From: Botryllus schlosseri
Lineage: Eukaryota
DNA length: 64,000 nt
Direction: 5' to 3'
Assembly: GCA_051294905.1 (NCBI GenBank)
Contig: CM119371.1
Location: forward strand, 36,458,001 to 36,522,000
The position numbers were made by a program, and so were the translations under genes. Below the pieces are notes generated by a model, which had not been told where the DNA came from, searched no databases, and saw only the letters and a program-made list of their open reading frames with translations. Shown here piece by piece: positions 498 through 50,347 of this stretch (position 1 is its first letter; each line of letters begins with the position of its first letter).

Positions 498-2548
498 CTT
501 CATTTTCGGGATTTCGTAGATCCTCTTGTCATCCGTAACTGTTCCGATGATGACGGCAGTTTTGGTATCGTTTCCGGGTTTCTTCATGTTACGCACCTGT
601 AAAAGAGAACTCGTCTCAGGCGAAGTCTCGAGGTCACGAGATGGAGCCTAGCCTCACGTAGCCTGGTACGACCAACACCGCATATTGGATTGGAAATAGA
701 GCTGGTCTTTTGAATATTAGATTGAATAGTATATTCATATTGAAATAAACCCGAATATTTTCGGCTGACACTCGTCAGCGCAACTAGTAGAGAATTGGAA
801 GGAATTTATGTGCCTTGTAGTCGACTTTTATCAAAATACACCAACCCTAACTCTGTCAACAAAAGGAGTTCGTGCACACCTGAAAATAGCACATTGAACG
901 CTGTCTCGTTCGAAACTTCATGCTGGTGACGTCATATTTTGTGATACGATTGTTGATAAACAATGCTATTTCCAATTCTCTGCTAGTTGCTGACGCTTAC
1001 CCCTGACGAGCGTCAGCCGAAAATATTCGGGTTCATTTCAATATGAATTTGAATATACTATTCAATCACGTATATTGAACTTCTGTCCCTCCAATTAGAT
1101 TAGATTAGAATGAAAATTAAAGATGCCGCAAAATAGTTCAATTCATATCAAATTATACTTCCTTCTCTAAAGCATGAGAATTCCATGTCCGCACATTTTG
1201 CACTGGCAATATACAGTTTTGCTGTGGCATTTTAGAGAAAACCACGAAACTGGATAGGAATTAGTACATAGAGACAATGTAACATATATATTAGAATTGG
1301 ATTACCAGCGTTTCGTTCTAGTTTGTCTATTATTGCTGTACTCAAAGACTTGGACTATTAGACGAGTTGTCTAATTTCACTAGACTAGAGCAAATTTTAT
1401 ATGTACTATGAACTTTAATTTAGTGGTTTTTTTTTCTTATTCGAAATTTCAACTAATATTCAAGTTTTTCTAAATTTAGTAATTTCAATTCCGATCTAAT
1501 TTCCAAACAAACTAGCTTCAATTTCAACTTAATATGGATAAATTGTGCAGCGCAAATTTTCCAATTTCAATCCAATTTAGAAAAAAAAACTTTAGATCCA
1601 GTCATAATCCAATTTGGAAAAGCTGAAATTGTTCTAGTTGGACAAGGCGCGCTGAACTGTATGAGGTCAATGAGGACAGTATTCATTTCATTGTAAGTCA
1701 CATGATGACAAAGTAAAGCATTGCTTACCACTCGAGCAATGGAAATGGGAGGTCGGTTGGTTCGGCTCATGAAAAGACGCCTCAAGACGACGCGGTTGAA
1801 CCCAGAGCTGGTTCGTCGAACAAGGAAGCGGTAAAGCTGTAAAATCAACAGATTGTGAAAATATTCCATACACATTAAAGATACCACTGTGAAAAATATA
1901 GAGATTAGAACATGATAGGTCTATGATAACTGGTGATTTTAGATACTCAACATATTGCGCAAAGCTCACTAACGGGCATACACTTGAACATAATTGGTAT
2001 CAATCTTGGGGCACAAAATATGTGGCTAATAATCACACAAAGCACAAATATATTATAAAGCTATATCTAGCTATATCTTGTCAAGATCTTCCTGAACATA
2101 AACATAACACTAATATACAATTGAATGGTAGGTTTATTCTGAAAGATATCCGAATATGTTCGGCTGACACTTGTAAGGGTTAATCTTTATCAATCATTTC
2201 GTGACAAAAATGACATTTACACACGGAAATGGGTTTATTTCAAGTATTTTGCTAGCTATTGTGCATCGTTAATAAATGCTTACCTTCACGAGAAGTTTAA
2301 GATAAATATCATTAGACTTGGGTGCAGTCCTTCTGGACTTGCGGTCCTTGTTATGGCGGATGTCGATACCCTGAAATAATACAGTATTATAGAGCGAAAC
2401 ACATCACAATTCTCCCCGCTGGATACTGCAAATCATACTTTACATCATCATCTACGTCTTAATTAAGAAATTACAGTATCTGGCTATTTGTGCGACCCGA
2501 TATTTCCAGATTAGATACAGATTTTTCTAAAGGAGCTACACTCACCAT
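498..2548 (-). CDS. RPL18: 60S ribosomal protein L18 (eL18), 5' part; remaining exons lie left of the window
   Basis: Exons 2546-2548 (ATG only), 2284-2370, 1729-1836 and 498-596, all GT-AG. They splice to [99 protein letters not shown], the recognisable eL18 N-terminus. Confidence 0.97.
715..1092 (+). mobile_element. Second truncated Penelope-like insertion (short inverted pLTR 715-804 + endonuclease tail/pLTR 805-1092)
   Basis: 805-1092 matches the element from about 14672 onward (TTTATCAAAATACACCAACC...GAGTTCGTG...). 715-804 is the reverse complement of the pLTR. Confidence 0.8.
999..1032 (+). ncRNA. Minimal type I hammerhead ribozyme, RPL18 intron 3 (antisense to RPL18)
   Basis: ACCC CTGACGA GCGTCAGCC GAAA ATATTC GGGT; core intact. 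Confidence 0.75.
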
Positions 2549-9000: not shown

Positions 9001-12000
9001 CGAACATATGTGAGTTTCTTTCAATACGAGTATATTATTCACTCGTAAATTCACCCTTTTTTCGTGACCATTGCGGTGTTCTGTTTAGTAGTCTGCTCAC
9101 TCACATGCATGGCTTAACTGCAACTTGATATTACGAATATACTTGTGTGTTTTGTCGCTAATTAAACGCTGTAAGCCTGGTGCATTACCTGACCTCTGTG
9201 TTTACGCGCAGTCGATGGAGAGAGACCTCCACCATCAACGGCAGACCCTCTTGCAAGAGCTGGAGCACATTCAGTTGAGGGAGAAGAGCTTGCAGGAGAG
9301 AGAGAGAATCTTGAAAGAGATGGTGGGTTTCAAATCACGTAGCTGATGCCTGTGTGTAGCACGCCGCATCGATGAGAGGTATTAGTGTCTAGTTGCGATA
9401 AAACAAGCCCTATAATTCTAAATGCAAAATACTAGAAATCCAGATGCGTTTTCCTTGATGATACTGACTAGGGCAACTTTTTGTAACTTTTCTCTGTTTT
9501 TCACGCCAATTTTTACTGCAACTTTTTAGCAAATATAGCGTTGAAATGTGGAGGAGAGAGTTAAAAACGTGCTATAATCTATTTCTAGCATGGTTCTATT
9601 ATCTTTGATTTGCATAACAATGAGCTATATGATGGGTTAGGTGCATCTGAATGTTATCTATGACACAATGGCTTGCAAGCAAGAAGCTCAACTACCCCTG
9701 CCAAACGCGACCGTGCCAGAACAATATGTTTATCGACCGCTATATTAATTCTGTCCTATACATTTGAGAAAGTTTCCCATTTCACGTAAACCCAGGCGGG
9801 TCCATCGAAAATTACATTTTCACTGGGTCGCTCTTTTCAGGCTATTGACGTTGTTTAAGTCGCTAAGACTGAGTTTTCCTTCAATGCCTAGGTTCAACTT
9901 TGCAGACCTAGGGGGTGGGGTGTGTTATTTGACTTGTTTTAGGCGAAGGGGTTATCGCTATGCTGTTTGGTTTCTGGGGTGGAATTATTCCTGCATTGCG
10001 TAATTTTCTTGCTGTGTACCGGAAAAAATGGAATTTTTGGCGGTCTCGCCTGTCGCCAGACCATCCGTTCAATGGCAAAGTAACAAATTGGACAGAGCAG
10101 GATTCATACTGTCACTGAAATGCTTGAATTTGATTTAGATAGAAGATTTGTCTCATCAATATTTCTTACTAACCGCTTCCGCATCATATTTTATTGTCAA
10201 ATTTGTTGCTAAACCCATGTAAAATTATTCTTAAAAACGGGCTTTCTTTGATGTCACTGAAAAACACTTTCATTTTCAACGAACGATCTCAAAATGATTC
10301 CGCCGAAATTTCGTGTACCGATATATTTTAGGAAATGATTAAGATTCGGGAATTGGACTTGATAAAAGCCGAGGCGTTGAGCGATCAGCTACGCAACGCC
10401 GGGGTCAAAGGTGACAGGAAGAACGCGGAGGACTCTGTGGTGTCGTCATGCGCCGAGTCGCTGCGTAAATCTCTGACTGGCAAAGAAAGTATGATATTGC
10501 TTTATGTGTTCCACCGTCAGGGTCATAACTAGAAAATTTTTAGCATTTTCAAGTTAGATTACAATTAGAATTATAGCTACAATGTATTTTTTGCAAATTT
10601 TATTATACTGTAATTTTCCATGCATAATGCGCAAAATTTTCACGAGTTTTTGCCCCAAAATAGGGGGGTGCGTATTATACATGGGTACAACAAGCCTTGA
10701 AAAAAATCTCCCTCGATAAAAAACTTGAAATCACACCCATCTTCATGTTTGTTTCCAATCGCGCATCACTTTCAGCCTTCGCGCGTAGTAATTCGTATTA
10801 TAGACTGTAACGCGCTGCCAATTAGTGGTAAGCGTGTTGCCAATTAACGTGCACAAGCACGCGATCTCCTGCTGAGTTGGTTTGCCGTTTGTACGCGAGC
10901 GAAATTAGGTCACTAATAGACACTCGAGTGTGGCAATTCTCGCCAATTCATCGGGTCAACGACAGGCCTGAACATATACAAGAGACCATGTGCGCAAGAT
11001 ATAATCGCCTGCGTAATCAGTCACATCTCCAACAGACCTGTTGTGCATGACATAACCGTTAGCCTAGGCGCAATCGCATCTGTAATAGGCATCGTGCGCA
11101 AGATGTCGGTTCGTTGGCCTAAACTAACTCGCCGCCGGCCTCGCAGGCTTTGGCTGCTATCTACTATCGTTTAGAGACAATGCCGTTAATTGTATAATGA
11201 TTAGCAATCGCATCTGTAAAAGGTCTCCTCGTGCTCAAGATGTATCGCGACACCCGCCTCGCAGGCTTTGGCTGCTATCTACTATCGTTTAAAGACAATC
11301 CCGTAATTGTATAATGATTAGTGATCGTCCTGTAATGATTGTTCAAGACTGACATCTCGGAACTATTCATGTACTGAATGTAGGGTGCGTACTATACATG
11401 GGTACAGGCTTTTTCCCAGAATTTACATGCTATTTTAGGAGTGCGTATTATACATGGGGGCGTACTATACTTTGAAAATTACGGTAGTATTATATCACCA
11501 ACATTTCGATCTAATTGGACCACTACAAATCTAGATGAACGCTTCCTCACTATTTAGAAGTGCCTTTGATGTATGATTACTTCAGGCCGTCAACTGGACC
11601 AAGTGTTGCAGGAGCTGGAAGTCCGGGCCAGCGAGTCGGCAATGCTCCGTTCTGAACTAGAAACCTTGAAGATGGAAATGAGGACTACAAAAGTGGGTGT
11701 TATGTCTTCTTGGTGGTACGATTGCTGACATACAATGTTCTTTCCAATTCTCTGCTAGTTGCTGACGATTACCCCTGACGAGTGTCAGTCAAAAATATTC
11801 GGGTTTATGCCAATATAAATATGTTATTCAATTGTACCTTCCTTGTTCTGTGTTGCAGTCTATTTCTAATAGGCGCGGATCTCCTATACACTATATACAG
11901 CTTTGTGAATAGGTGGTAAGGTGGATATACATTTTTAAGAGACTCTCGGAGGCACCGAACTTCAATATCCAATTGAATAGTATATTCATATTGGTATGAA

Positions 12001-15000
12001 TCCCAACATTTTCGGCTGACACTCGTCAGGGGTAATCGTCAGCAACGAATAGAGAATTGGGAAGAGCGTTGCACCTCAACAATTGCATCACCGAATATGA
12101 CGCACTCGTGTGTTTCTCGCCGAATGCGTTAGTAATCACAGTGGTGCATCTTCTTTAGTACAAAATGATAGCGTATACCGTAGATCATCAAGCATGTCGT
12201 AATATAACACCAGGTGCGTTCTCAAGAAGCCAGCCCAACCCCACAGGCAAGGCGTCAACCGCCTTTGGACACCCACGACCGATCATTACGACAAAGACTG
12301 GACACATTAACTAGGTAGCTATCCCGGTTTGTTATTCATCAAGTGTAGCTATGGTCAGTGACCGAACACTTGTACTTTTCAAGTATTGTTCAGTTCAAGT
12401 AGTCTAGTGCAGTGTTTCTCAACCTTTTTGTCTTCGTGCACCCCTTTGGACCACCACAGACCCTCCTAGTTTTAGTTCAAATTTGCTCTATTATCATGCA
12501 ACCGTCATCTTTTCTGTGAAAATAGTAACTGCAGGCTAGTGGTGACGGCAGCAGAATGACCTTTCTTGACATTAACGTCATACTATTTATGAAGAGACTG
12601 GGAATGCTTCTATTTCAAAGCGAATTCTCTTGCTGCACGCGGCCGTGTCTTGAAATTCCAATAATTTCCACAAAAATAGATGACTGCAAATGTAATAATA
12701 ACACCTAACGCTTCAGACGACACCTTTGGATATGATCACAACATGCATGGCACCAATATGATGTCAAGCCTCGTTATTTCTATCTAGCAGCTCATCTTGA
12801 AGTTATTCTGGAACAGCAGTTATGTTTATCACAGGGGAAAATGGATTTTTGCAAACAAATTTATTCAAAAACATATCCGATTTGGCGATTAAAATGGGTT
12901 TGCACGGTGAAATATATTTCGTATCAGACTACTCCCGATGCTACTTGGATAGTTCGGTGATAGGTTTGCACCCGGTGACAGGAATGGTCATGTCTTGAAA
13001 AATAGCCATTGTCTCACGGTAACTGATTATATTTTCGAAGATTCTAACTATTTGCAGTGTCACTGGCCGTTTTGGGAAGATATATCTTGAAATTTCGAAA
13101 GTAGCTAACTCCGATTAACTGCTAAAAGTAGGCTATGCGAACTCGCGACATAATATAATCTTTAATACTAATTTATCAGTGAGCGTTTTTCTGACTTTCA
13201 TTCTCCACTCACACTTATAGTAGGTGTCATATGTCTCTGAAATTGCTACTTGTAATTGTAATTCTACTTGTCATTGAGTATATAGTTACCGTGTTACTTC
13301 AACGCCACCAGCAACAGTTACCACTTTTACTATCTCTGATCATTTGTCTGTGTGAAATGAACTCAAATAATCTTACATTACTCAAGAAATGGAATAGTTT
13401 CATTTGCAACAAGTCGCAAACGTTTGATGCAGTGTCTAAGTATTTTTTGTTTTCCAGGCAACTGGACCAGTGGAGCAGCAACACTAAGACCCAGAGAGAA
13501 TCCGTCGACAACGAAGAGATGACGAGATGGGTGAGGTCACGACGCTGCCCTGAAATTTTTATGCGTCTCTGCGAAATTACGATAGACGAGTGGGTTTGGT
13601 ATTTTTGAATGCATATCCCGATCCATATTTGAACTTGGCATTGGGGTATCTAATCTCTGCCGCCTCACAGTATCTGTTCTGTAGACTTGGACAATCATCT
13701 AATTAGACTGATTTCAGCGAAATGTCGATAATCAAATTCGCGAAATGTTTCTTTGGTCTAGTTCTAATTCCCGCAAATGCTACAGGAAAACTATAGGGGA
13801 AAGGAGGCGAAGATGAGACACTTTTCTGATATTCCACGCCACTTGAAGGGTGTTGCCGTCTGAGGAATAATGTTGGTACCAATGGAAAGCCTGTGATCTG
13901 TACTATTCATGACTCTGTGTTGTGTTATATTGAACAACATTCTTGTGGATTTATTGGCCCTCAAAAATCCTTGCTCAAATGTCTCAACCTACCCCCAGGT
14001 GAGGGTAAGATGAGACACGCCGTGCTCAAGATGAGGCACCAAGCAATTCTGGCTCATTACACCACCGATTCATCCCAAATGACGAATCAACTAGCAACCT
14101 CATGAGTAAAATATAATAATCATGAAATAATTCACTTTTAAAAAGAATTTGTACATCTTATACGAATTTAAATGACATCGAAAACCAATTATCCATGGGA
14201 TCGAGCAACAATATGAATTTTGTTATTATTTTGACTTGCAATGTCACATCTGGTCAACCACTAGATAAATAATCTAGTATGTGAAGAGCTTCTTGGAGGT
14301 ACAGAACTTCAATATACAATTAAATAGTATATTCATATTGAAATGAACCCGAATATTTTCGGCTGACACTCGTCAGGGGTAATCGTCAGCAACTAGTAGA
14401 GAATTGGAAAGAACATTGTATATCGACAATCGTATCACAAAATATGACGTCACCAGCATGAAATTTCGAATGCGAGAGCGTTCAATGTACTATTTTTAGG
14501 TGGTACACGAACTCCTTTTGTTGACAATGGCCTTTGATCTTAAGATTGATGCTGATCGATCAAAGGCCATTAATTCTGCCATCGGCAAACATCTGTTGGA
14601 TAATCCGATTTGTGCGAATAATTATCGAGACGACCGATTTCGAATCGTTGGGCGGGGCCGTTCACAATTCCATTTGTGTGCCTTGGAATCAACTTTTATC
14701 AAAATACACCAACCAAAACTCTGTCAACAAAAGGAGTTCGTGTACCACCTAAAAATAGTACATTGAACGCTTTCTCATTCGAAATTTCATGCTGGTGACG
14801 TCATATTTTGTGATACGATTGTTGATACACAATGTTCTTTCCAATTCTCTACTAGTTGCTGACGATTACCCCTGACGAGTGTCAGCCGAAAATATTCGGG
14901 TTCATTTCAATATGAATATACTATTTAATCTAGTATGTGTGCCATGAACAGTAAATTTAGAATATTGCGAGGCTTTCAGTGAAAAAGCCCTCTGATAACC

Positions 15001-18000
15001 ATGTCTCATCTTACCCCCACACCTCAAAAAAATGTTAAAATGTTCTGTCTGTTACTTTTCAGAGGTAAGCGCATGATGACACTGCTAATATTGCACTTTA
15101 CCAGCTTCGGTAATGTTGTTTTATAATATGAAGTACTAAGATAGCCATGCCCTTACAAACACGAATTCACAGAACTGACATAGACTATGAAAATATAGTT
15201 TTTGCCGTTTTTCTGCCCAACATCAAATCTGTTTTCCTTGTTGATATGGTAGGACTATAGAATGAGATTATGGGCACAACATAGCTGAAGGAATATGTCC
15301 ATCAGAAAATTGTTCTATGAGAAAATTGCATGTCTCATCTTGGCCTCCTCTCCCCATATAGTGCAAAACTTTGCTGTACAGACATTTGTCATTCTCTTGC
15401 TTGGACCGGAACTTGAATTCTATCTGCTGTCGGTCTTTTTTCAAGTCGTTTCATTTGCTGTGATAGCGACAGGAGATGTCGAAACTGTCCGAAGTGAGAG
15501 AGACCTTCGAAGAGAAGCAGCGGCAATTGGACGACATGATGGACCGGGTCTCGGCCAGGATCGGGTCCGACCGGTCCGCCAGGACTCCCCGAAAAGGTCC
15601 GGTCATTATTAAGAGTAGGCAAAGCTCGAGTCATTTGATTCTGAACCGCCTGTTTGTCTTTGAGTATTCGAATATCGCTTATTACGACGTCATAACAGTA
15701 TAAAAGATGTGAAAATTTTAAATATGTACCTTTTATGCCACTACAAACAATATAATGGCAGTTCTAGAGCACATTGGCAATTATTTGAAATATATTTTCA
15801 ACTATACCCATTTCATTGCATTTTGTGACAATGCTGCACATTAGGGGTCTTCAAAACCGACTTTCCTTCTCAAATCGTACTGGCTACTTGATAAATTTGT
15901 TAGGTTACCTAATTTAAGCCTGCACACCAAATTTGGTTCAATTCCAACCAGTAGAAAGTTTCTATTTATTATATAAAAATTAATGAACAAAAATTTCAAA
16001 ATTTTCTGTTATGTTGTCTATTGATACGATGTTCACCAAATTTGGATTATGAATAAAATAGTATTTACAATTTACGATTACGATTACGACACACCAAATT
16101 TGGTGTGTAGGCTTAAATTAGGTAACCTAACAATTTTATGAGGTGAACAGAAAGTTTTCAAATTTTTTGATATTTATTTTTATATAATAAATAGAAACTT
16201 TCTTCTTCTGTAGCAATGCGGCTACTGGTTGGAATTCAACCAAATTTGGTGTGTAGGCTCAAATTAGGTAACCTAACAATTTTATCAAGTAGCCAGTTCG
16301 ATTTGAGAAAAAAAGTCATTTTTGAAGACCCCTACTGCACATGGGTTGATTGTGGCTTCTCAGATATGTCATGTACGCTAACGTGTGTAGCTTTGCAACA
16401 AAAGTTTCACAGTGGAAAATAGTATCGAAACTACGATTCTCGGTGATAAATTAACTCTTGGTTGGAAGGGAGCTCATAATTTAAGTACTAGAGTCGTGGA
16501 GTTAATCTCTGGGTCAGTGTCGTATGACACATATTTTAAAATATTTTTCAGGCGCATCATCGGGTCAGCTACCCTCGACCAGCTTACGGCTTCTCATGGA
16601 CGCACAGTATGATGTAACAAAGGGCTCGTCAATCAGAGACTACGATCCAGTGCATTTGGAGAGGAACGTGCGCTGGGCCGATAAAATGCCGTACTCTGTG
16701 AACGCGAACCTTTTAGGTTGGTTTGAGATTATATTATTATCCTTCTAGTAAACTCTACCAAATCTCATTTATTAAGTATTGCTTACCGTTCGTTTTGAAG
16801 AGCATCTTTGCGACACAGAACTTCAATATACAATTGAATAGTGTATTCATGTTGAAATGAACCCGAATATTTTAGACTGACACTCGGCAGGGGTAATCGT
16901 CAGCTTCTAGTAGAGATTCGGAAAGAACATTGTATAACAGCAACCATTCAATTTCTACACCCAATTGAAGTAATTTTGACTTTTAGATTTCTGCCTCTGC
17001 TTTTAATTGATCAGGAATTCACAGCATTACAGGGTTGTAATCAAGTCGCAAGGCTCCGAGTCACAAGTCAATCTCACTTTTATAGTTTTGACTCGAGTCA
17101 AGTCGAGTCGTTTTCAATTCACCACCGAGTCAAGTCCAAGTCAGCGAGCAGAAGGTCGAGTCCGAGTCGTGGTATTATGACTCGAGTCCAAGTCATTGCG
17201 TTGAATGCTCATTTTCTAGTTGAAGTCCCGTTAAACCCACTTTCTATAACTCTGTTTGGTGATATCGAATGGTTCGCATTTTTAATATACTAATTTTCCT
17301 CACTTTTAGCAGTTTCTGGTCGCATTTTCAAGTACCAGTACCAATAGACGAAATCGCAATAGTGCGGTCTTTACTATTCTTCAAAATTGCCGTGAAATGT
17401 CGGTCTTGGCCGTATGAGTCTCGAGTCATATGACTTGGTTCGAGTCATGCACAATGACAAGAGTCTAAGTCGAGTCATTTCCGTCGCGAGTCGAGTCATC
17501 AGAACATCGTGACTCGAGTCGAGTCATGACCCAAATCAATACAACCCTGCAGCATTACTTCTACTTGAGTAATATTGCCGACCGCTCACACCACATCCGG
17601 CGAAAATGCCCAAAAAAGAAGCGAAGAAATACATTTATGTTTTCTACACACTACTCACTCCAATTGGTTTTGATTTTACTACTTCTTCCACGTGTTCAAT
17701 TTTTTAGGAAAAATTTTTTACTTTCACGTTTTTGATTTTGAAAAGTCAAAGGTAGTCTTGGGACGAGTTTCGGTCACCCACGGTTGTAACCAACTCGCAA
17801 GGTTCCGAGCCACAAGTCAATCTCACTTTGTTAGTTTTGAATCGAGTCAAGTCGAGTCATGTTCAATTCACCATCGAGTCAATTCCGAGTCAGTTAGCAG
17901 AGGGTCCAGTCCAAGTCCTTATGTTCACTGTTCAGTTTTCGCTTCAATTCGGTTTTACACACGTTTATCAACTCTGCTCAAGTGATATAGAATGGCTCGC

Positions 18001-21000
18001 ATTCATAATATCGTAATTTTCCTCAGTTTTAACAGTTTCTCGCCCTATTTTTTCAAGTATCAGGACTGATGGACGAAATACCAATAATGTGGTGACTTTA
18101 CTATTCTTCGAAGTTTCAATGAAATGTCTCTCGACTTGCGTACAAGTCGGGTCAATACAAAAATTGACTTGAGTCGAGTCATTTTACACATCGGAAAAAA
18201 AGACTCGAGTCACCAAAAAAATCGTGACTTGAGTCATTAAAACTAGGGCTAGTTTTTGCAACTTTTTTTTACAGCTTCCGGCAGCTTCCTAAATACTCGT
18301 AAGACATGTAGAGTGCTGTTTTAAGCAATTTGAAGGAATCTTATAGTGCAACTTTTTGCAACTTTTGTCCATTTTTTTCATGCCACTTTTTACAACATTT
18401 TGCAACTTTTTCGATTTTTCAGGAAAGTATTTTTGATTTTGGTGAAATACACGGCCAAATTCGACTGAAGTACCGCAAATTAGCACTGAAGGAACGTTCC
18501 GACGGGTGTTTCGGTAGCTGAGCCGGAAAGTTGGCCTTTTTTTTTAGTCAACCGAGCCAAATGTGGTCCTTTAGTGCAACTTTGTGGAAAAAATAAATGC
18601 AACTTTTTACTGTAACTTTTGTCAAAAATAAATGCAAATTTCCACGGATCTGCAACAAAAACTTGCCCTAATTATAACCCTTCATTCACCTATGATTATG
18701 TATGTTAACAGGTAGCGCGAAAAGTCCGAGAAATGCGAGCAAGGATGTGAGCGCTGTGGATATGGACACCTCCAACGAGACGGTGATGTCCAGCGACCTT
18801 TCCACCTCCGCGATTCGGAGAGATATCCGAGAAAAGTGGGTTTTATGGGTGGTTTAGTAAATTCTGGATGACAATTTTGCACCGACACCATCCTTATATT
18901 TGTGAAGAGGAAAAATGTCCCGACTGACTATATTCAAGTTAAGGACATGCCCAGGCTATCCATGTCAAAAACAAACATAAAATCCTTCAAGTAAATCATT
19001 AGTATTGCTCACATGCCTTTGATAACTTGAAGCTTGATTCGGAAATTCTCTTGAAGTCATGAATCATTCCACAGTTTTTCATATATCGAGTCTAAGTCGA
19101 TATTTTGTTAGGCACTGACTCGAGTCAAGTCATTGTAAAAATGTGACTCGAGTCTCTCTCCTCTCTATCTTGACGACTCGCTCCGCTTCAGATTCAGAAA
19201 CTTGGAAAAGGAGACGGAACAGTTGGATCAAATGTACAAGAGATACATCAACTCGAACTATAAAGACGTCGGTGCAAAGCTAACAGGTGCGCGCATGATT
19301 GATTGAAGAATGCCTCTCCGGCCTAACATGAAATTTAAAAGCTAGCGTCATATTCATAACATCTGCAATGTTCTTTCCAATTCTCTGCCGGTTGCTGTCG
19401 ATTACCCCTGACGAGTGTCAGCTGAAAATATTTGGGTTCATTTCGATATCAATATACTGATCAATTGTATGTTGCTGTACCTCTAAGAAGCTCATGTGCA
19501 TATAAACTCTATACTGAGTGTAAAAAGTGAGTTGTGTTGCAAAAAAAATTGAGAAATCTTGAAATTATATTTTTCAGACGAAAATTACCGGAACCCAGAT
19601 CCCAAACCCGAATATAAAGCATTCCGAGAATCATTTCCCGTCCCAAAATCGCCCGCAACAAAATCAACCTTGTCGGAAAGCGCCCATCGTCGATCGCCTC
19701 TAAAAGTTGACATGTTAACGCGGGAGATACCTGACTTGGAACTGTCGAAGCTTGACGCATCGCCACGGCAACAAGATCAAAGACCAAGATCGCCGACAAA
19801 TAGTGATGTCACAGAAGATAAAAGCAAGTCGCGTCCTGAATTAAAATCAAATGAATCACCGTCTAACGACGACGCATCTCGAGATACGCCTTTGCTGTCT
19901 ACGACCCATCCCGGGGCACAATCTGACCGCAAGGACACCGGGGCAGTGCCGGGACTGTCGTTAGGGTCCGGAAGTTCTAGCAGCTCTGAAATTTCAGAAC
20001 GTAGTTCAGTTTCGTCGATTTCACCCAGACCTGACTTAGCCGGACCGGCCCGGCCCTTCGACCGCATGGCGATTTTCGAGAAGAAAACGGAAGATATATT
20101 CTCCGGGCAAAATCTCTCAAAGTCAGCGGAATCTCCAGACCACCAAATATCATCGGACAACCCAAGGTCTCCGGACCGCCCCAAATATACAGACCGCTCA
20201 AAATCGCAGGATCACCCAAAATCTCCGGACCACCAGAAGTCGACAGACAGCCTGAAATCTTCGGAATGGCCGAAACCTCAAGGACGCCCCAAATCTCCGG
20301 ACCACCAATCCGATTCCGAAGAAAACGACCGGTTTCAAGATATACTTCGCAGCATCGACCAACGTAGCGCCCGCAGTATCGAGGGCGACACTGACCCAAA
20401 ACTAGCGGACATTCTCAACAAAGTAGAGCCTGCCCCGTCTCAAATTAGTACCGGACCAGTTTTGACGTCACCAAAGCGGCCCAGTGATGGACAGGTGGTA
20501 GTCGCGTCCAAATATCAATCCGAGAGTGACGATTCATCTTCAAGTATGTCGGAACACGTCAAGCAAGGCAAAAAAGATTCTCTGGGCATTGGTGAAAAAG
20601 GGATCGTCACATCAGAACAGGATCGCGGTCGGAGTGACTTTTCTGACGACCAGTCTTCAGCGAGCTCGATTTCGGGGAAAAATAACGACAAAAAATCTGA
20701 TTATCCCGATGATTTTGCGTCTTCTGCGTCTGAGGTAAAGACTATGTCCGACTACGAGCCTACTTCTACCTCCGCGCCCAGGATCGAAGAGAAGGTATTT
20801 CGAATCCTTTTTTCATTCCACCTTCCGCTGAGGCAGGGTTGTAATGACTCGAGTCAAGTTTTCATTTTGTAAATGCGTAAAATGACTCGACTCGAGTCAA
20901 TACAGATATCGTGCATGAATCAAGACTAGGGCGGCCAAGACACACATTTCATTGTAACTTCGAAGAATAGTCAAGCTACCGCGTCATTGGTATTCCGTCT

Positions 21001-24000
21001 ATCAGTCCTGATACTTGGAAAATAGCCCCACCCCCAGAAACCGTTGAGAATGAGGAAAGTTAGCAGGGTTGTAACCAAGTCCCAATCTCACTTTTATAGT
21101 TTTGACTCGAGCCAAGTCGAGTCATTTTCAAATCACCACCGAGTCAAGTCCGAGTCATCGAGCAAAGGGCCGAGTCCGAGTCATTGTGTTGACTGCTGAG
21201 TTTCCAGTTAAAGTCTTGTTAAAGCCACTTTTTATAACTCTGTTTCGTGATATCGAATGGTTCGCATTTATAATATACTAATTTTCCTCACTTTTGACAG
21301 TTTCAGGTCTCAATTTCAAGTACCAGTACTAATAGACGTAATCCCAATACTGTGGTTACTTTACTATTATTCGAAATTACAATGAAATCTCAGACTTGGC
21401 CGTCTGAGTCATATGAGTTGGTTTGAGTCATGAGCAATGACTCGAGTCCAAGTCGAGTCAAGACACAGATTGACTCAATTCGAGTCATTTCCGTGTTTTC
21501 AGACTCGGACTCAAGTCAAGCCAATACAACCCTGAAAATTAGTATATCATGAATGCGAGCCATTCTGTATCGCTCCAGCAGAGTTGGAAAGATGGGTTGG
21601 CAGATACCATTCACCTATGGAGTGTCCTGTTCACAGAAGGGGTTTAAAACCCACGGCGAATCATGATGATTGCTGGGAGAAATGACGAAGAAAGTCAATT
21701 CATGTCAATTTACCAGCGTGTCGCAGGCCCAGACGTGCTGATTTATTATATGTGTGCCGCTTCACCCATAGGCCTACTTGTCTTTTGATTATGGAGCAAT
21801 AATGGTGCGTAAATATCAATTCACTCCATCTTGCGCGAGACAATATTATTGTAAAGGCTACGATTAGCGGTTCGTCGTAAGTCCTACAAGTTTTTGTGAA
21901 TGCGTCACAACAACAAACGGAAGCCACTGTTCGTGATATCATATCAAGTTTATTTGAGTTGTTCCGCATCACATAAAATAAATATGCACAATCTTGCACC
22001 ACTTTAGAGCATTTATTTGAACGGCGTTTGATTGCGGTTGCTCAAAAATCCTGATATTTAGGTTTGTATCGTTATGAAGATATTATTCAATCCATTACAA
22101 GCAGAAGCAGCAATTTCCAAGACACATCAAATCAAATTACATTTTTATTAAAAATAAAAATGACCAGGACCCGATCCACAGTTTCAACCGTTGATTACAC
22201 CCTGTCGCATTCTCTTTCAGGCCGCCAGCCAGGAATTGGACGAGGACAGGTCCGGAGCTGACATCAACTGGTCCAACTTACAGCCGGACAAGTCTGGTAG
22301 GTGGCTCTGCCCGTGCAGCACCATTTACTCAATTCTCAGTTTTTTAGGAATAATTCCATGAAGTCTTTGTCAATTTTAGTAGGGTAGTCTTCAAGGGGCA
22401 GCTTCTTTTAAAATTGCAAAATCTAACCTCAAAACTAACGCAAAGTGACTAATGCCACCGCAAATAGCTACAATCTCGGATCATATATTCAGTTACCGTG
22501 ATACCGGCGCTATTTGGCTATCACTTGTAAAATTGATGCAACAAAGAAGATACATTGTGGCACGTTCCAAGTCCTCAGGCGAATTTACTCCTACGAATTT
22601 ACTATATAGCATCAATTCATTAGGGTTAAGTACATGCGTGAATGACGATTATACAATCTCCTCATGTTAACAAACTTACACTTATGGTAATCTTGTCAAA
22701 TAGTCCGGAAGTGCTGTCAATGTGTGAGTCCCTGATCTCTTGTAAAGAATTAAATACGTGCGCGCTTATCAACGGGTATTGCGTGGCCTTAGCGACGATT
22801 TGCGCAAGTCAGAATGTCCGAGTTGTTATGGAATCTGTTCTGTAACGACACCGATTTCAGGTGGTTCTAATCTTTCTAATCTTTTATAACGCAAGCCTTG
22901 ACCCACATCTTCTGATGGTTATGTTTAAGTGGTCGCAGATGTTCGATGTCATTTAGTTTCGCGATGTTAACTCTTGAATCGCTATCGCTAATCAACATAC
23001 ACTCAATGGCATTGTCTCTAAAGCATTGCAAGTAGAAGCAAAGGTATGCTAGGCCCGAGACACGATAGTTAGGCCAGCGATGATATCTTTCGTGCCAGGC
23101 CTATTGCAGATGCGATTGTGTGGGCCAGGGGTGGGTAACCTGCATCGGTTAAAGGAAATTTGTACGGCCGTCGACACGTAATTCAATTAGTATGTGTCGG
23201 CGGCCGTCGACATGCGAATTTAATTTACGAATTGACTCCCAAATTTTTGAGACATTTTAATTAATCTTGGAATTTTCTTTGCTGTAAGCGCGATTCAATG
23301 TTACTTCATTTTATCGATTCGTAGGGTAGCGCCCTTTGCAATCTGAACCGCACAGTAAACGCGAACAAACGGTAGAGGAAAATGCTGCGCCTGATATACA
23401 AAAATGGTGTACACCTCACGAAATCTGCTACCAATTCAACGAACATGTTTGCACGCAGGAGAGCTTGCAAAGTCGGCAGAACGCATCGAAGCCAGGCAAG
23501 ATCCTGTTGTCGATTTTGACGAGTCACAATCGGAACAGTCCATGGAAGCGCCGGATGATGTGTAAGCGGTTTATGATTTTGTCGGATATTCTATTGCATC
23601 AATGATGCGATAGTTGAAGAAAAGTTATTGTTTCATTCGAATGTGAAATTTGACAAATTTACGTAGCCAAGGACGTGAACATCTAAAAACAGTACATCGA
23701 GCTGAAGCCATCTGTTCGCCTCAATTAGTCAAATTTTCATGTCGGTGACGTCATTTATGATGATACGATTGTTGATATACAATTTTCTTTCCGATTCCCC
23801 ACTAGTTGTTGATCATTACCCCTGACGAGTGTCAGCCGAAAATATTCGGGTCCATTTCAATATCAATATGCTATTCAACTGCGTACTGATGTTCTGTACC
23901 TTCAAAAACCTGTTTCATTACTCAATTGGTTATCATTTTGACTCCTTCCACTTTTACTTGTCATTTTTCATTTGGTAAGTCAAAACTAGATGTAGAATCG

Positions 24001-49516: not shown

Positions 49517-50347
49517 TAAAGGGATTTAAACAGATTTAAAAGCAAAACCAAAAAGGCAAAGTATGACGCAACAATCAAAATCACAGATCATGATATTCGC
49601 TTTGAACCAATGGCAACAATAACAAACTATGCAGTATACGGACATACGGTACTATAGTAGCAACGCAATTCGTAAATAAACAGTTACACGCACGAAACAA
49701 CACGCACTAATAAGAAATTTGCAGGTTATAAAGGAAATCTTTTTGTCTACATAAAATGCTCAACTAAATAATAGTAGACTCCAGCACTTTTAGATGAAAC
49801 AAAGACCTACCACGCGCAATGACAGTGAACATATTGTCATCATAGTGCTGTGCACAGGCGAGGTTTTCACTCAGATGCTGACCAATTGACGAAGCATATG
49901 CTTGGTAATCGTCATAGCAGTCTGTTTTGGCAGCCAATTTGCACTGACGTGCGAGCTCCGTGCGATCATTTGCGCATGTTTTTGACCGAATCAGTTTTGG
50001 GATACGCTGCTTGATACGCTCGTCATCGAGCAGTAGAGACGTGGAAGGCGGAAGGGCACTCGGGCAGGTTGAATAAAAATGACATCATAGTTTTTAATAA
50101 CTGGTGCCCGAGTGGGAACGTCACAGCATTACTCACAGCAGTGTAAGTGAAGGCGTAGAGAGATATACACTTGAAAAATCTCAAACACACATAACGCGTA
50201 ATCCGTTCCACCACCTCTCCCTCCCTCGCTTGCAGCGAATAATTTAAGACGTGATTTTATATCGGTTAGTAAGTATTCACATTCACATGTACACAATCTA
50301 TCACGCAGCATATATTCTTAGATCTCTTCATTGGTTGGTCCCATAAC

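Follow-up and report, generated by a model that had tools for sequence, protein, structure and literature searches.

Penelope-like elements (PLEs) carry hammerhead ribozymes for which a minimal architecture has been published. According to PMC4209133, these are type-I hammerheads placed in the pseudo-long terminal repeats (pseudo-LTRs) of elements encoding reverse transcriptase (RT) and GIY-YIG domains, with a stem III that is absent or palindromic (which implies dimers), a conserved G10.1-C11.1 pair, and thousands of mostly solitary copies, with opposite-strand pairs 100-700 bp apart. The ribozyme analysed here resembles them in all these traits. It lies at 14858-14901 on the forward (+) strand of a stretch of 64,000 nucleotides from Botryllus schlosseri (GCA_051294905.1, contig CM119371.1, positions 36,458,001 to 36,522,000), the whole of which is called the window. 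It departs from the published PLE consensus in helix II, which there is a long hairpin of 7-8 bp with a bulged 5' base after A9 (PMC4209133) and here is a hairpin of a single base pair plus a 5' leader. PLE hammerheads are described as being without tertiary contacts (PMC6155905), and the term "pseudoknot" is absent from the text of PMC4209133. In the window copy, loop II is complementary to a leader just upstream of stem I, and six of these pairs make up a helix that is kept across subfamilies by compensatory changes. We consider it probable that this 6-bp pseudoknot, stacked on G10.1-C11.1, contributes the 10.x strand to helix II of a PLE hammerhead that has to dimerise.

Two described hammerheads of other origin come close to this arrangement. 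The first is RAGATH-1 (RF03152), also of type I and also with a 1-bp G-C stem II closing a 7-nt loop (CS "<_______>"). As judged from its alignments (four of them printed), the centre of this loop would pair with nucleotides 5' of stem I, CUAGG/CCUAG in the examples and CUUGG/CCAAG in the consensus, with one position that appears to covary, and a 7-nt segment separates the partner from stem I as it does here. In RAGATH-1, however, a 5' hairpin presents the partner in its loop, giving a 5-bp kissing loop, whereas here a single-stranded leader directly next to the stem I strand makes 6 bp; a further difference is that RAGATH-1 has a 9-bp stem III hairpin and is a monomer from phages, in contrast to the palindromic stem III of this eukaryotic PLE. 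The only match of a hammerhead family to these ribozymes was RF03152 against a copy of family D (22.6 bits, E 0.058, model positions 25-77, the cut-off being 56.3); the window copy gave none with RF03152 at E<=10, and among the 59 of 81,555 genome candidates that were scored none matched at E<=0.001. Membership in RAGATH-1 was consequently discarded, the score falling below that of RF03152 and both its 5' hairpin and its long stem III being missing here. Among ten phage loci from IMG/VR with the printed RAGATH-1 consensus, eight do reach the cut-off with 67-86 bits (L081-L087 and L089; e.g., L084:91-167). The 7-nt loop II of phage RAGATH-1, ACUAGGA, is complementary to the 5' hairpin loop CCUAG, a pairing that is unmarked in the Rfam structure line.

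The second is the type-II hammerhead of Perreault 2011 (PMC3088659), which shares with the present one a 1-bp stem II and a 6-bp Watson-Crick helix with a strand attached atop stem I. It is a mirror image, joining loop I to the 3' tail that follows G10.1 where the present RNA joins loop II to the 5' tail that precedes stem I, and it is a bacterial or metagenomic monomer with a normal stem III. In it the pseudoknot limits the lengths of the stems, fast cleavage depends on the helix, and activity was lost and then restored by compensatory mutation in this combination of a 1-bp stem II with a 6-bp pseudoknot; the same text counts pseudoknots between stems I and II in ~40% of hammerheads and a single-pair stem II in "one case" (PMC3088659). 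Our locus, too, has a Watson-Crick helix that bridges the sides of stems I and II and is kept by compensatory change. By context the present RNA is a PLE hammerhead, and by analogy its helix II would be the solution found in RAGATH-1 and in the Perreault type-II RNA. The preliminary description of this locus had called the pairing a distinctive variant of the minimal hammerhead, which is overstated, since RAGATH-1 has the same architecture and Perreault 2011 (PMC3088659) had already tested by mutation a hammerhead that combines a 6-bp pseudoknot with a stem II of one pair.

The segment 14858-14901 (+) reads GCUGACG AUUACCC CUGACGA G UGUCAGC C GAAA AUAUU C GGGU and, judged by its motif, is an intact and complete type-I hammerhead. 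The core order CUGANGA...GAAA...UH is present with the pairs A15.1-U16.1 (14891/14896) and G10.1-C11.1 (14879/14887), and the core columns are invariant across an alignment of 79 copies (66 distinct), comprising those with the exact core pattern in the fetched genome loci and the window. All features run on the + strand. The leader strand of the pseudoknot, GCUGAC (14858-14863), which pairs with 14881-14886 and would replace helix II positions 10.2-10.7, is followed by a G (14864), invariant in 11 of 11 subfamily representatives, that pairs with loop position 1 in some subfamilies only (here as G.U). Sequence and alignment then place a 7-nt spacer containing the 5' strand of stem I (14865-14871), core C3-A9 (CUGACGA, 14872-14878), and a stem II reduced to G10.1 (14879) and C11.1 (14887) around a 7-nt loop II (the whole spanning 14879-14887), this pair being G-C in 66 of 66 distinct copies. 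Within loop II, pair counts single out U14880 as a linker and GUCAGC (14881-14886) as the 3' strand of the pseudoknot, and the loop has no internal pairing in this copy. Downstream come the invariant core G12 A13 A14 (14888-14890), the palindromic helix III AAUAUU (14891-14896), C17 (14897), after which cleavage is predicted at 14897/14898 from the position relative to the core, and the stem I 3' strand GGGU (14898-14901). The latter pairs with ACCC (14868-14871), the only part of the spacer that is paired here, although all 7 nt pair in other subfamilies; stem I is supported by pairs that change on both sides across copies and subfamilies. As a hairpin, stem II amounts to 1 bp and depends on the leader helix for its completion, and the palindrome of stem III requires a second copy: AAUAUU allows no closure in a monomer (the loop would be of 2 nt) and can form 6 bp between two copies, its central pair covarying between G-C (AAGCUU) and U-A (AAUAUU) in 42 and 16 distinct copies, respectively. 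No Rfam family reaches its gathering score in the 64-kb window, and around 14700-15100 no Rfam hammerhead covariance model matches at E<=10, the only matches being those of TD-1 and sR55 at chance level. Taking the CUGACGA of the leader as the core, or drawing a type-III arrangement, was dropped on inspection because no helix II or helix I could be drawn.

As the preliminary description had noticed, GCUGACG (14858-14864) is the antiparallel complement of UGUCAGC (14880-14886), with six Watson-Crick pairs (14858-63/14886-81) plus G14864.U14880. When the 40 nt upstream were shuffled 20,000 times, a 7/7 match arose in 144 cases, and 125 of the 127,988 7-mers of the window are able to pair 7/7 with loop II. 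Pairing with the whole of loop II holds for this copy and fails as a conserved feature: the conserved leader/loop II helix is of 6 bp, because in 53 of 66 distinct copies the leader G and loop position 1 do not form the seventh pair. In the 79-copy alignment 87.3% of the cells of the six-pair helix are paired, against 7-34% when the partner is slid by 1-3 columns, and its covariation score of 0.370 (0.204+/-0.016 in shuffles) was reached by 0 of 500 shuffles. Counted in distinct copies, pair P1 is A-U in 28, G-C in 28 and U-A in one, P4 is G-C in 52 and A-U in four, and P5 is A-U in 44, G-C in 11 and G.U in five; departures from the common pair at P2, P3, and P6 are mostly wobble or decay.

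In the 11 subfamily REPRESENTATIVES (one intact representative each, chosen by hand) the six pairs are 100% paired, three of them invariant and three changing on both sides. Adding a family with an 8-nt loop, in which leader GCCGACG faces loop UGUUGGCU, so that P3 has gone from U-A to C-G and P4 is G.U in the consensus, compensatory changes are seen at four of the six positions across subfamilies (G-C/A-U/U-A; U-A/C-G; G-C/A-U/G.U; A-U/G-C/G.U). The leader GCCGACG is found in 10 of 14 copies with loop UGUUGGCU, one having GUCGACG and three being without the leader region. A G.U in a family consensus would be A.C on the opposite strand, which suggests that the constraint falls on the sense-strand RNA. 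The U-A variant (UCUGGCG/AGCCAGA) occurs at two separate loci, each of them an inverted pair. Exact combinations of three leaders and three loops were counted on the two strands of the whole genome: leader ACUAACG goes with loop NGUUAGU 208 times and with NGUCAGU twice, leader ACUGACG with NGUCAGU 129 times and with NGUUAGU and NGCCAGU three times each, and leader ACUGGCG with NGCCAGU 165 times and with NGUCAGU eight times, i.e., matched combinations number 208, 165, and 129 versus 2, 3, 3, and 8 for those mismatched by one step. Leader and core are always 7 nt apart (8 nt in one subfamily), whatever the length of stem I, which ranges over 4-7 bp. The preliminary description had left two readings side by side, a pseudoknot and a competing hairpin, and the full pairing in 11 of 11 representatives, the two-sided changes, and the fixed spacing support the first.

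Loops of 8 nt are seen in L093 (G000:C1:12992443-12995542) and 26 more copies in L091-L110, all with UGUUGGCU or UGUCAGCU as loop II, and the genome contains 137 matches; the extra U of such loops adjoins C11.1 and would interrupt the stacking of the leader helix on stem II. Among the genome matches listed for spacers of 8-30 nt (100 of 137, plus 87) there are indel variants and loops of 8 nt, and not one hairpin helix II.

The leader almost repeats the core (CUGACGA occurs twice), a point absent from the preliminary description. This repetition is what would be expected if the complementarity were functionless, i.e., the leftover of a local duplication of the core spread by expansion of the family. 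Deletions between the two repeats do occur (L076 among them), and kinship among family copies inflates the raw counts. We regard this explanation as highly improbable, in view of the compensation at four of six positions across lineages whose open reading frames (ORFs) are only ~51-57% identical, of the transversion pair A-U to U-A at two loci, and of the absence of a mismatched consensus from every high-copy subfamily. A point change in some subfamily-A copies makes the leader a second exact CUGACGAG, leaving two core-like motifs 14 nt apart.

Two further copies in the window had been cited as cases in which the pairing is kept. In the copy near RPL18 (989-1032, +; loop CGUCAGC, leader GCUGACG followed by a private C) the sequences are as had been given, GCUGACGC at 989-996 and GCGUCAGC at 1010-1017, and no two-sided compensatory change is involved: the loop change U to C turns G.U into G-C, and the change A to C on the leader side offers G10.1 a second partner besides C11.1, with which it already pairs. 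This A to C change is private, being absent in the other three of the four sampled copies with a CGUCAGC loop. In the copy at 23.8 kb (23808-23851, +) the two C to U changes in the leader are real, although they are ordinary transitions, and a third change (G to C at leader position 7) had been omitted, its decayed leader reading GUUGAUC. For the genome-wide copies in general, the covariation that had been anticipated is present between subfamilies, with compensatory changes at four of six positions, and missing within the dominant one.

Several observations weigh against the pseudoknot as we read it. The 79-copy sample is enriched by design for copies in which loop position 1 is not U, and it omits four of the 10 window copies, those mismatching the search pattern. 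It also retains the matches at L002 and L010 (loop GUGGACU) and at L018 and L019 (loop AGUCGGU), which lower its pairing figures; these have neither palindrome nor leader and resemble another repeat or decayed copies. From the dominant subfamily 27 copies were fetched for their variant loops or as neighbours, and none of the 22 with a variant loop has a compensating leader change, one of them keeping 6/6 pairs through a G.U. On the subfamily A backbone, 95 single mutants have only the leader change G to A (giving A.C) and 136 only the loop change C to U (giving G.U), and there are at least four double A-U mutants (among 100 of 129 matches listed), close to the ~2.6 that independent transitions predict, a figure that assumes ~5,000 intact subfamily A copies as a rough estimate. 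The lack of compensation within the dominant subfamily is expected for dead transposon copies, and since such copies show none, support rests on substitutions between lineages rather than on thousands of observations: the evidence is of at least five paired substitutions between active lineages, most of them transition pairs reachable via G.U.

Transcripts and folding predictions belong with these points. Two raw-read single-cell RNA runs under the same organism label (7,547 and 5,094 reads) cover the element, the 3' region of the PLE (14700-14930) in both orientations, without a pile of read ends at 14897/14898, in libraries of a type that cannot settle cleavage. No position over the element has many molecule starts or ends in the single-cell runs, which neither supports nor refutes cleavage in vivo; a bulk RNA run with another organism label gave 0 reads at the site, and one contig run was also compared. 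A similar absence of cleavage ends is described for a PLE of Anolis, the hammerhead of which needed the protein of the element to cleave in vitro (PMC11167929). Many of the reads diverge at 14812, 14836, and 14863, and other expressed repeats match only part of the sequence. As to folding, the nearest-neighbour fold of a subfamily A monomer prefers two inactive hairpins at -12.2 kcal/mol, the core/loop hairpin and CCGAA/UUCGG, with GAAA and C17 buried and a pair probability of ~0.1 for the leader helix, which alone is predicted at -7.4 kcal/mol. Nearest-neighbour folding disregards pseudoknot stacking and the dimer.

Since the leader repeats the core, loop II is complementary, through its positions 2-6, to core C3-N7 as well (CUGAC:GUCAG), a pairing that is possible in subfamilies A, B, C, and E and is not conserved. 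The competing hairpin of the preliminary description, in which the leader pairing itself would sequester the core, is not supported in that form, as that pairing touches no core nucleotide and the structure that does compete for the core is this other one. A bistable gate could nevertheless be imagined, off when loop II pairs with the core and on when it pairs with the leader, in which the availability of the leader, through transcript start, co-transcriptional order, or bound PLE protein, decides cutting. Besides the repeated CUGACGA, such a gate is favoured by the 5-bp core/loop hairpin, predicted at -5.4 to -6.3 kcal/mol and dominating the modelled ensembles of subfamilies A and B (0.66-0.78, versus 0.02-0.1 for the leader helix), which is formable in 86.7% of cells, and by the reported PLE hammerhead that cleaves only after protein addition (PMC11167929). 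However, covariation is missing from the core/loop pairing, its score being reached by 412 of 500 shuffles, and the core is invariant, yet loop changes that break the hairpin have been fixed and compensated in the leader. Subfamilies F, G, and K keep only three core/loop pairs (-1.3 to +0.7 kcal/mol), the F-type leader/loop combination still numbers 165 copies, and the leader helix is already dominant in subfamilies C and E, with a predicted 0.91. A gate of this kind is therefore unlikely for the ribozyme at large. For subfamily A (~7,500 copies, the one at 14858-14901 included) the switch between leader and core is kept as a minority reading, because the folding disregards pseudoknot stacking and the dimer: it is doubtful, if a little less so, that there loop II clamps the core until the leader, as a decoy core, frees it and builds helix II. 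If such a two-state device existed, the RNA would cut itself only with the leader present and free (in read-through or tandem transcripts) or after remodelling by protein.

The pseudoknot, which we prefer, would work as follows. Loop II (14881-14886) would pair with the leader (14858-14863), 1 nt upstream of the 7-nt stem I strand; running 5' to 3' into C11.1, it would act as the 11.7-11.2 strand, with the antiparallel leader as 10.2-10.7. Stacked on G10.1-C11.1, the leader helix would yield a "helix II" of 7 bp whose 10.x strand is leader-derived, about the same total length as the published 7-8-bp hairpin helix II of PLEs. U14880 (loop position 1) would be the single linker over the deep groove, letting G10.1 reach 14881 across six pairs. 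Fully paired loops of 6-7 nt are known from RNA kissing complexes. The leader would climb helix II and turn via one invariant G into stem I, so that the arms would be held side by side, as an active hammerhead requires, and with a 7-bp helix II next to a 7-nt stem I strand (4-7 bp) the tops of both arms would meet. Given the palindromic stem III, cleavage after C14897 should need two copies pairing together, a dimer mechanism that has been published for PLE hammerheads (PMC4209133, PMC6765202).

The host of the ribozyme is a 5'-truncated PLE, with the ribozyme at its 3' end. Just upstream, at 14524-14763 (+), lies the 3' end of the PLE ORF, coding for the C-terminal stretch of its endonuclease region (tblastn with residues 771-850 of the L041 ORF, 52.5% identity, E 2.7e-19). 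That reference locus, L041 (G000:C1:22034000-22043000), has three tandem ribozymes 2,778 bp apart and between them an ORF of 850 aa with the reverse-transcriptase domain RVT_1 (E 7e-10) and, at its C-terminus, a GIY-YIG match (E 0.0014) whose 19.3 bits are below the 22.6-bit cut-off. Relatives of this ORF (51-57% identity) are found upstream of ribozymes of the window subfamily at L078, L005, and L031. The motif CUGANGAG-N7-CGAAA, expected 0.30 times in the window, occurs there 10 times (<=1 mismatch), and it has 9,085 matches in the 495-Mb genome against 24 for a reversed control pattern. The window copies share one 3' end ~32 nt past the cleavage site and have variable 5' truncation (self-BLAST, query ends 541-556 at >=12 places), so that the ~32 nt after the cleavage site (14898-14929, +) form a common "tail"; several copies are head-to-head on opposite strands, and inverted pairs are present. 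Hammerheads in pseudo-LTRs and inverted truncated copies are described for PLEs (PMC4209133), as is a tail of 30-40 bp (PMC8557442), and the tandem and inverted arrangement, the ORF with RT and GIY-YIG, and the tail therefore match the published picture.

This position near the 3' end raises the question of whether the helix was selected for another step of retrotransposition, e.g., as a 3'-end structure recognised by the PLE RT/endonuclease near the internal initiation site. The helix lies ~45-70 nt from the common 3' end of copies (~14929), internal RT initiation makes the tail, and catalytic hammerhead mutants were without effect on in vitro insertion (PMC11167929). Its geometry is nonetheless tied to the hammerhead, the loop II strand being closed by the invariant G10.1-C11.1 and the other strand abutting stem I, and without the helix the hammerhead would have no helix II; both roles are compatible, and such a role in place of the one in the hammerhead seems quite unlikely to us.

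Among the other copies in the window, the inverted partner at 14347-14390 (-), head-to-head with the flagged copy, has the same leader, loop, and core. The copy at 12000-12043 (-) keeps leader and loop intact, with helix III and the cleavage site decayed, and the one at 749-792 (-), within 739-798, has lost the leader and the stem I strand, apparently by deletion between the two CUGACGA direct repeats. The same loss is seen in L076 (+). At L074 (-) (G000:C1:9212295-9212474) two copies meet in an inverted junction: the core of one directly adjoins the reverse complement of the other's loop II/GAAA, a palindromic join at leader/loop microhomology. A second fragment of the PLE ORF C-terminus is located at 49716-50021 (-), with 48% identity to the L041 ORF over residues 750-848. 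A decayed ribozyme copy (19408) is closely followed by an ORF of 437 aa (19559-20872, +) whose segments in BLASTP alignments are rich in S/D/P/K; Pfam gives no match for it, and it was rejected as part of the PLE because it does not resemble the PLE protein. Identical ribozyme copies appear regularly spaced in three other regions of the genome: G000:C2:34054564-34165851 (six copies, ~21.7 kb apart), G000:C9:19316443-19333588 (three, ~8.6 kb), and G000:C9:24233421-24288986 (three, ~25-30 kb). These spacings suggest large tandem segmental repeats with one PLE fragment each.

In the literature joining hammerhead, pseudoknot, and Penelope-like (openly available main text, with subscription journals, figures, and supplements outside its scope) a leader/loop II helix in PLE hammerheads was not found. 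The architecture has precedent in phage hammerheads, and what seems new is the PLE setting together with a helix II built from a leader. About 150,000 PLE hammerhead variants were reportedly catalogued by Lunse, Weinberg & Breaker in 2017, and the leader form may be among them. What is known of hammerhead catalysis is unchanged by the finding, which would link a eukaryotic retroelement ribozyme to the RAGATH-1 architecture of phages. It does have a practical side: models requiring a hairpin helix II miss copies of the leader type, Rfam finding 0 of at least 10 in the window. PLEs whose hammerhead core fits no stem/loop descriptor have been reported (HHR_core; Craig et al., PMC8557442), and these HHR_core PLEs elsewhere may have the same leader/loop design. 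PLE hammerheads have been described as minimal motifs that have a long hairpin helix II, make no tertiary contacts, and perform very poorly in vitro; in the present case, PLE lineages with ~9,000 ribozyme copies in a single genome would build helix II from the 5' leader instead, and the prediction is that constructs made without the leader would understate activity.

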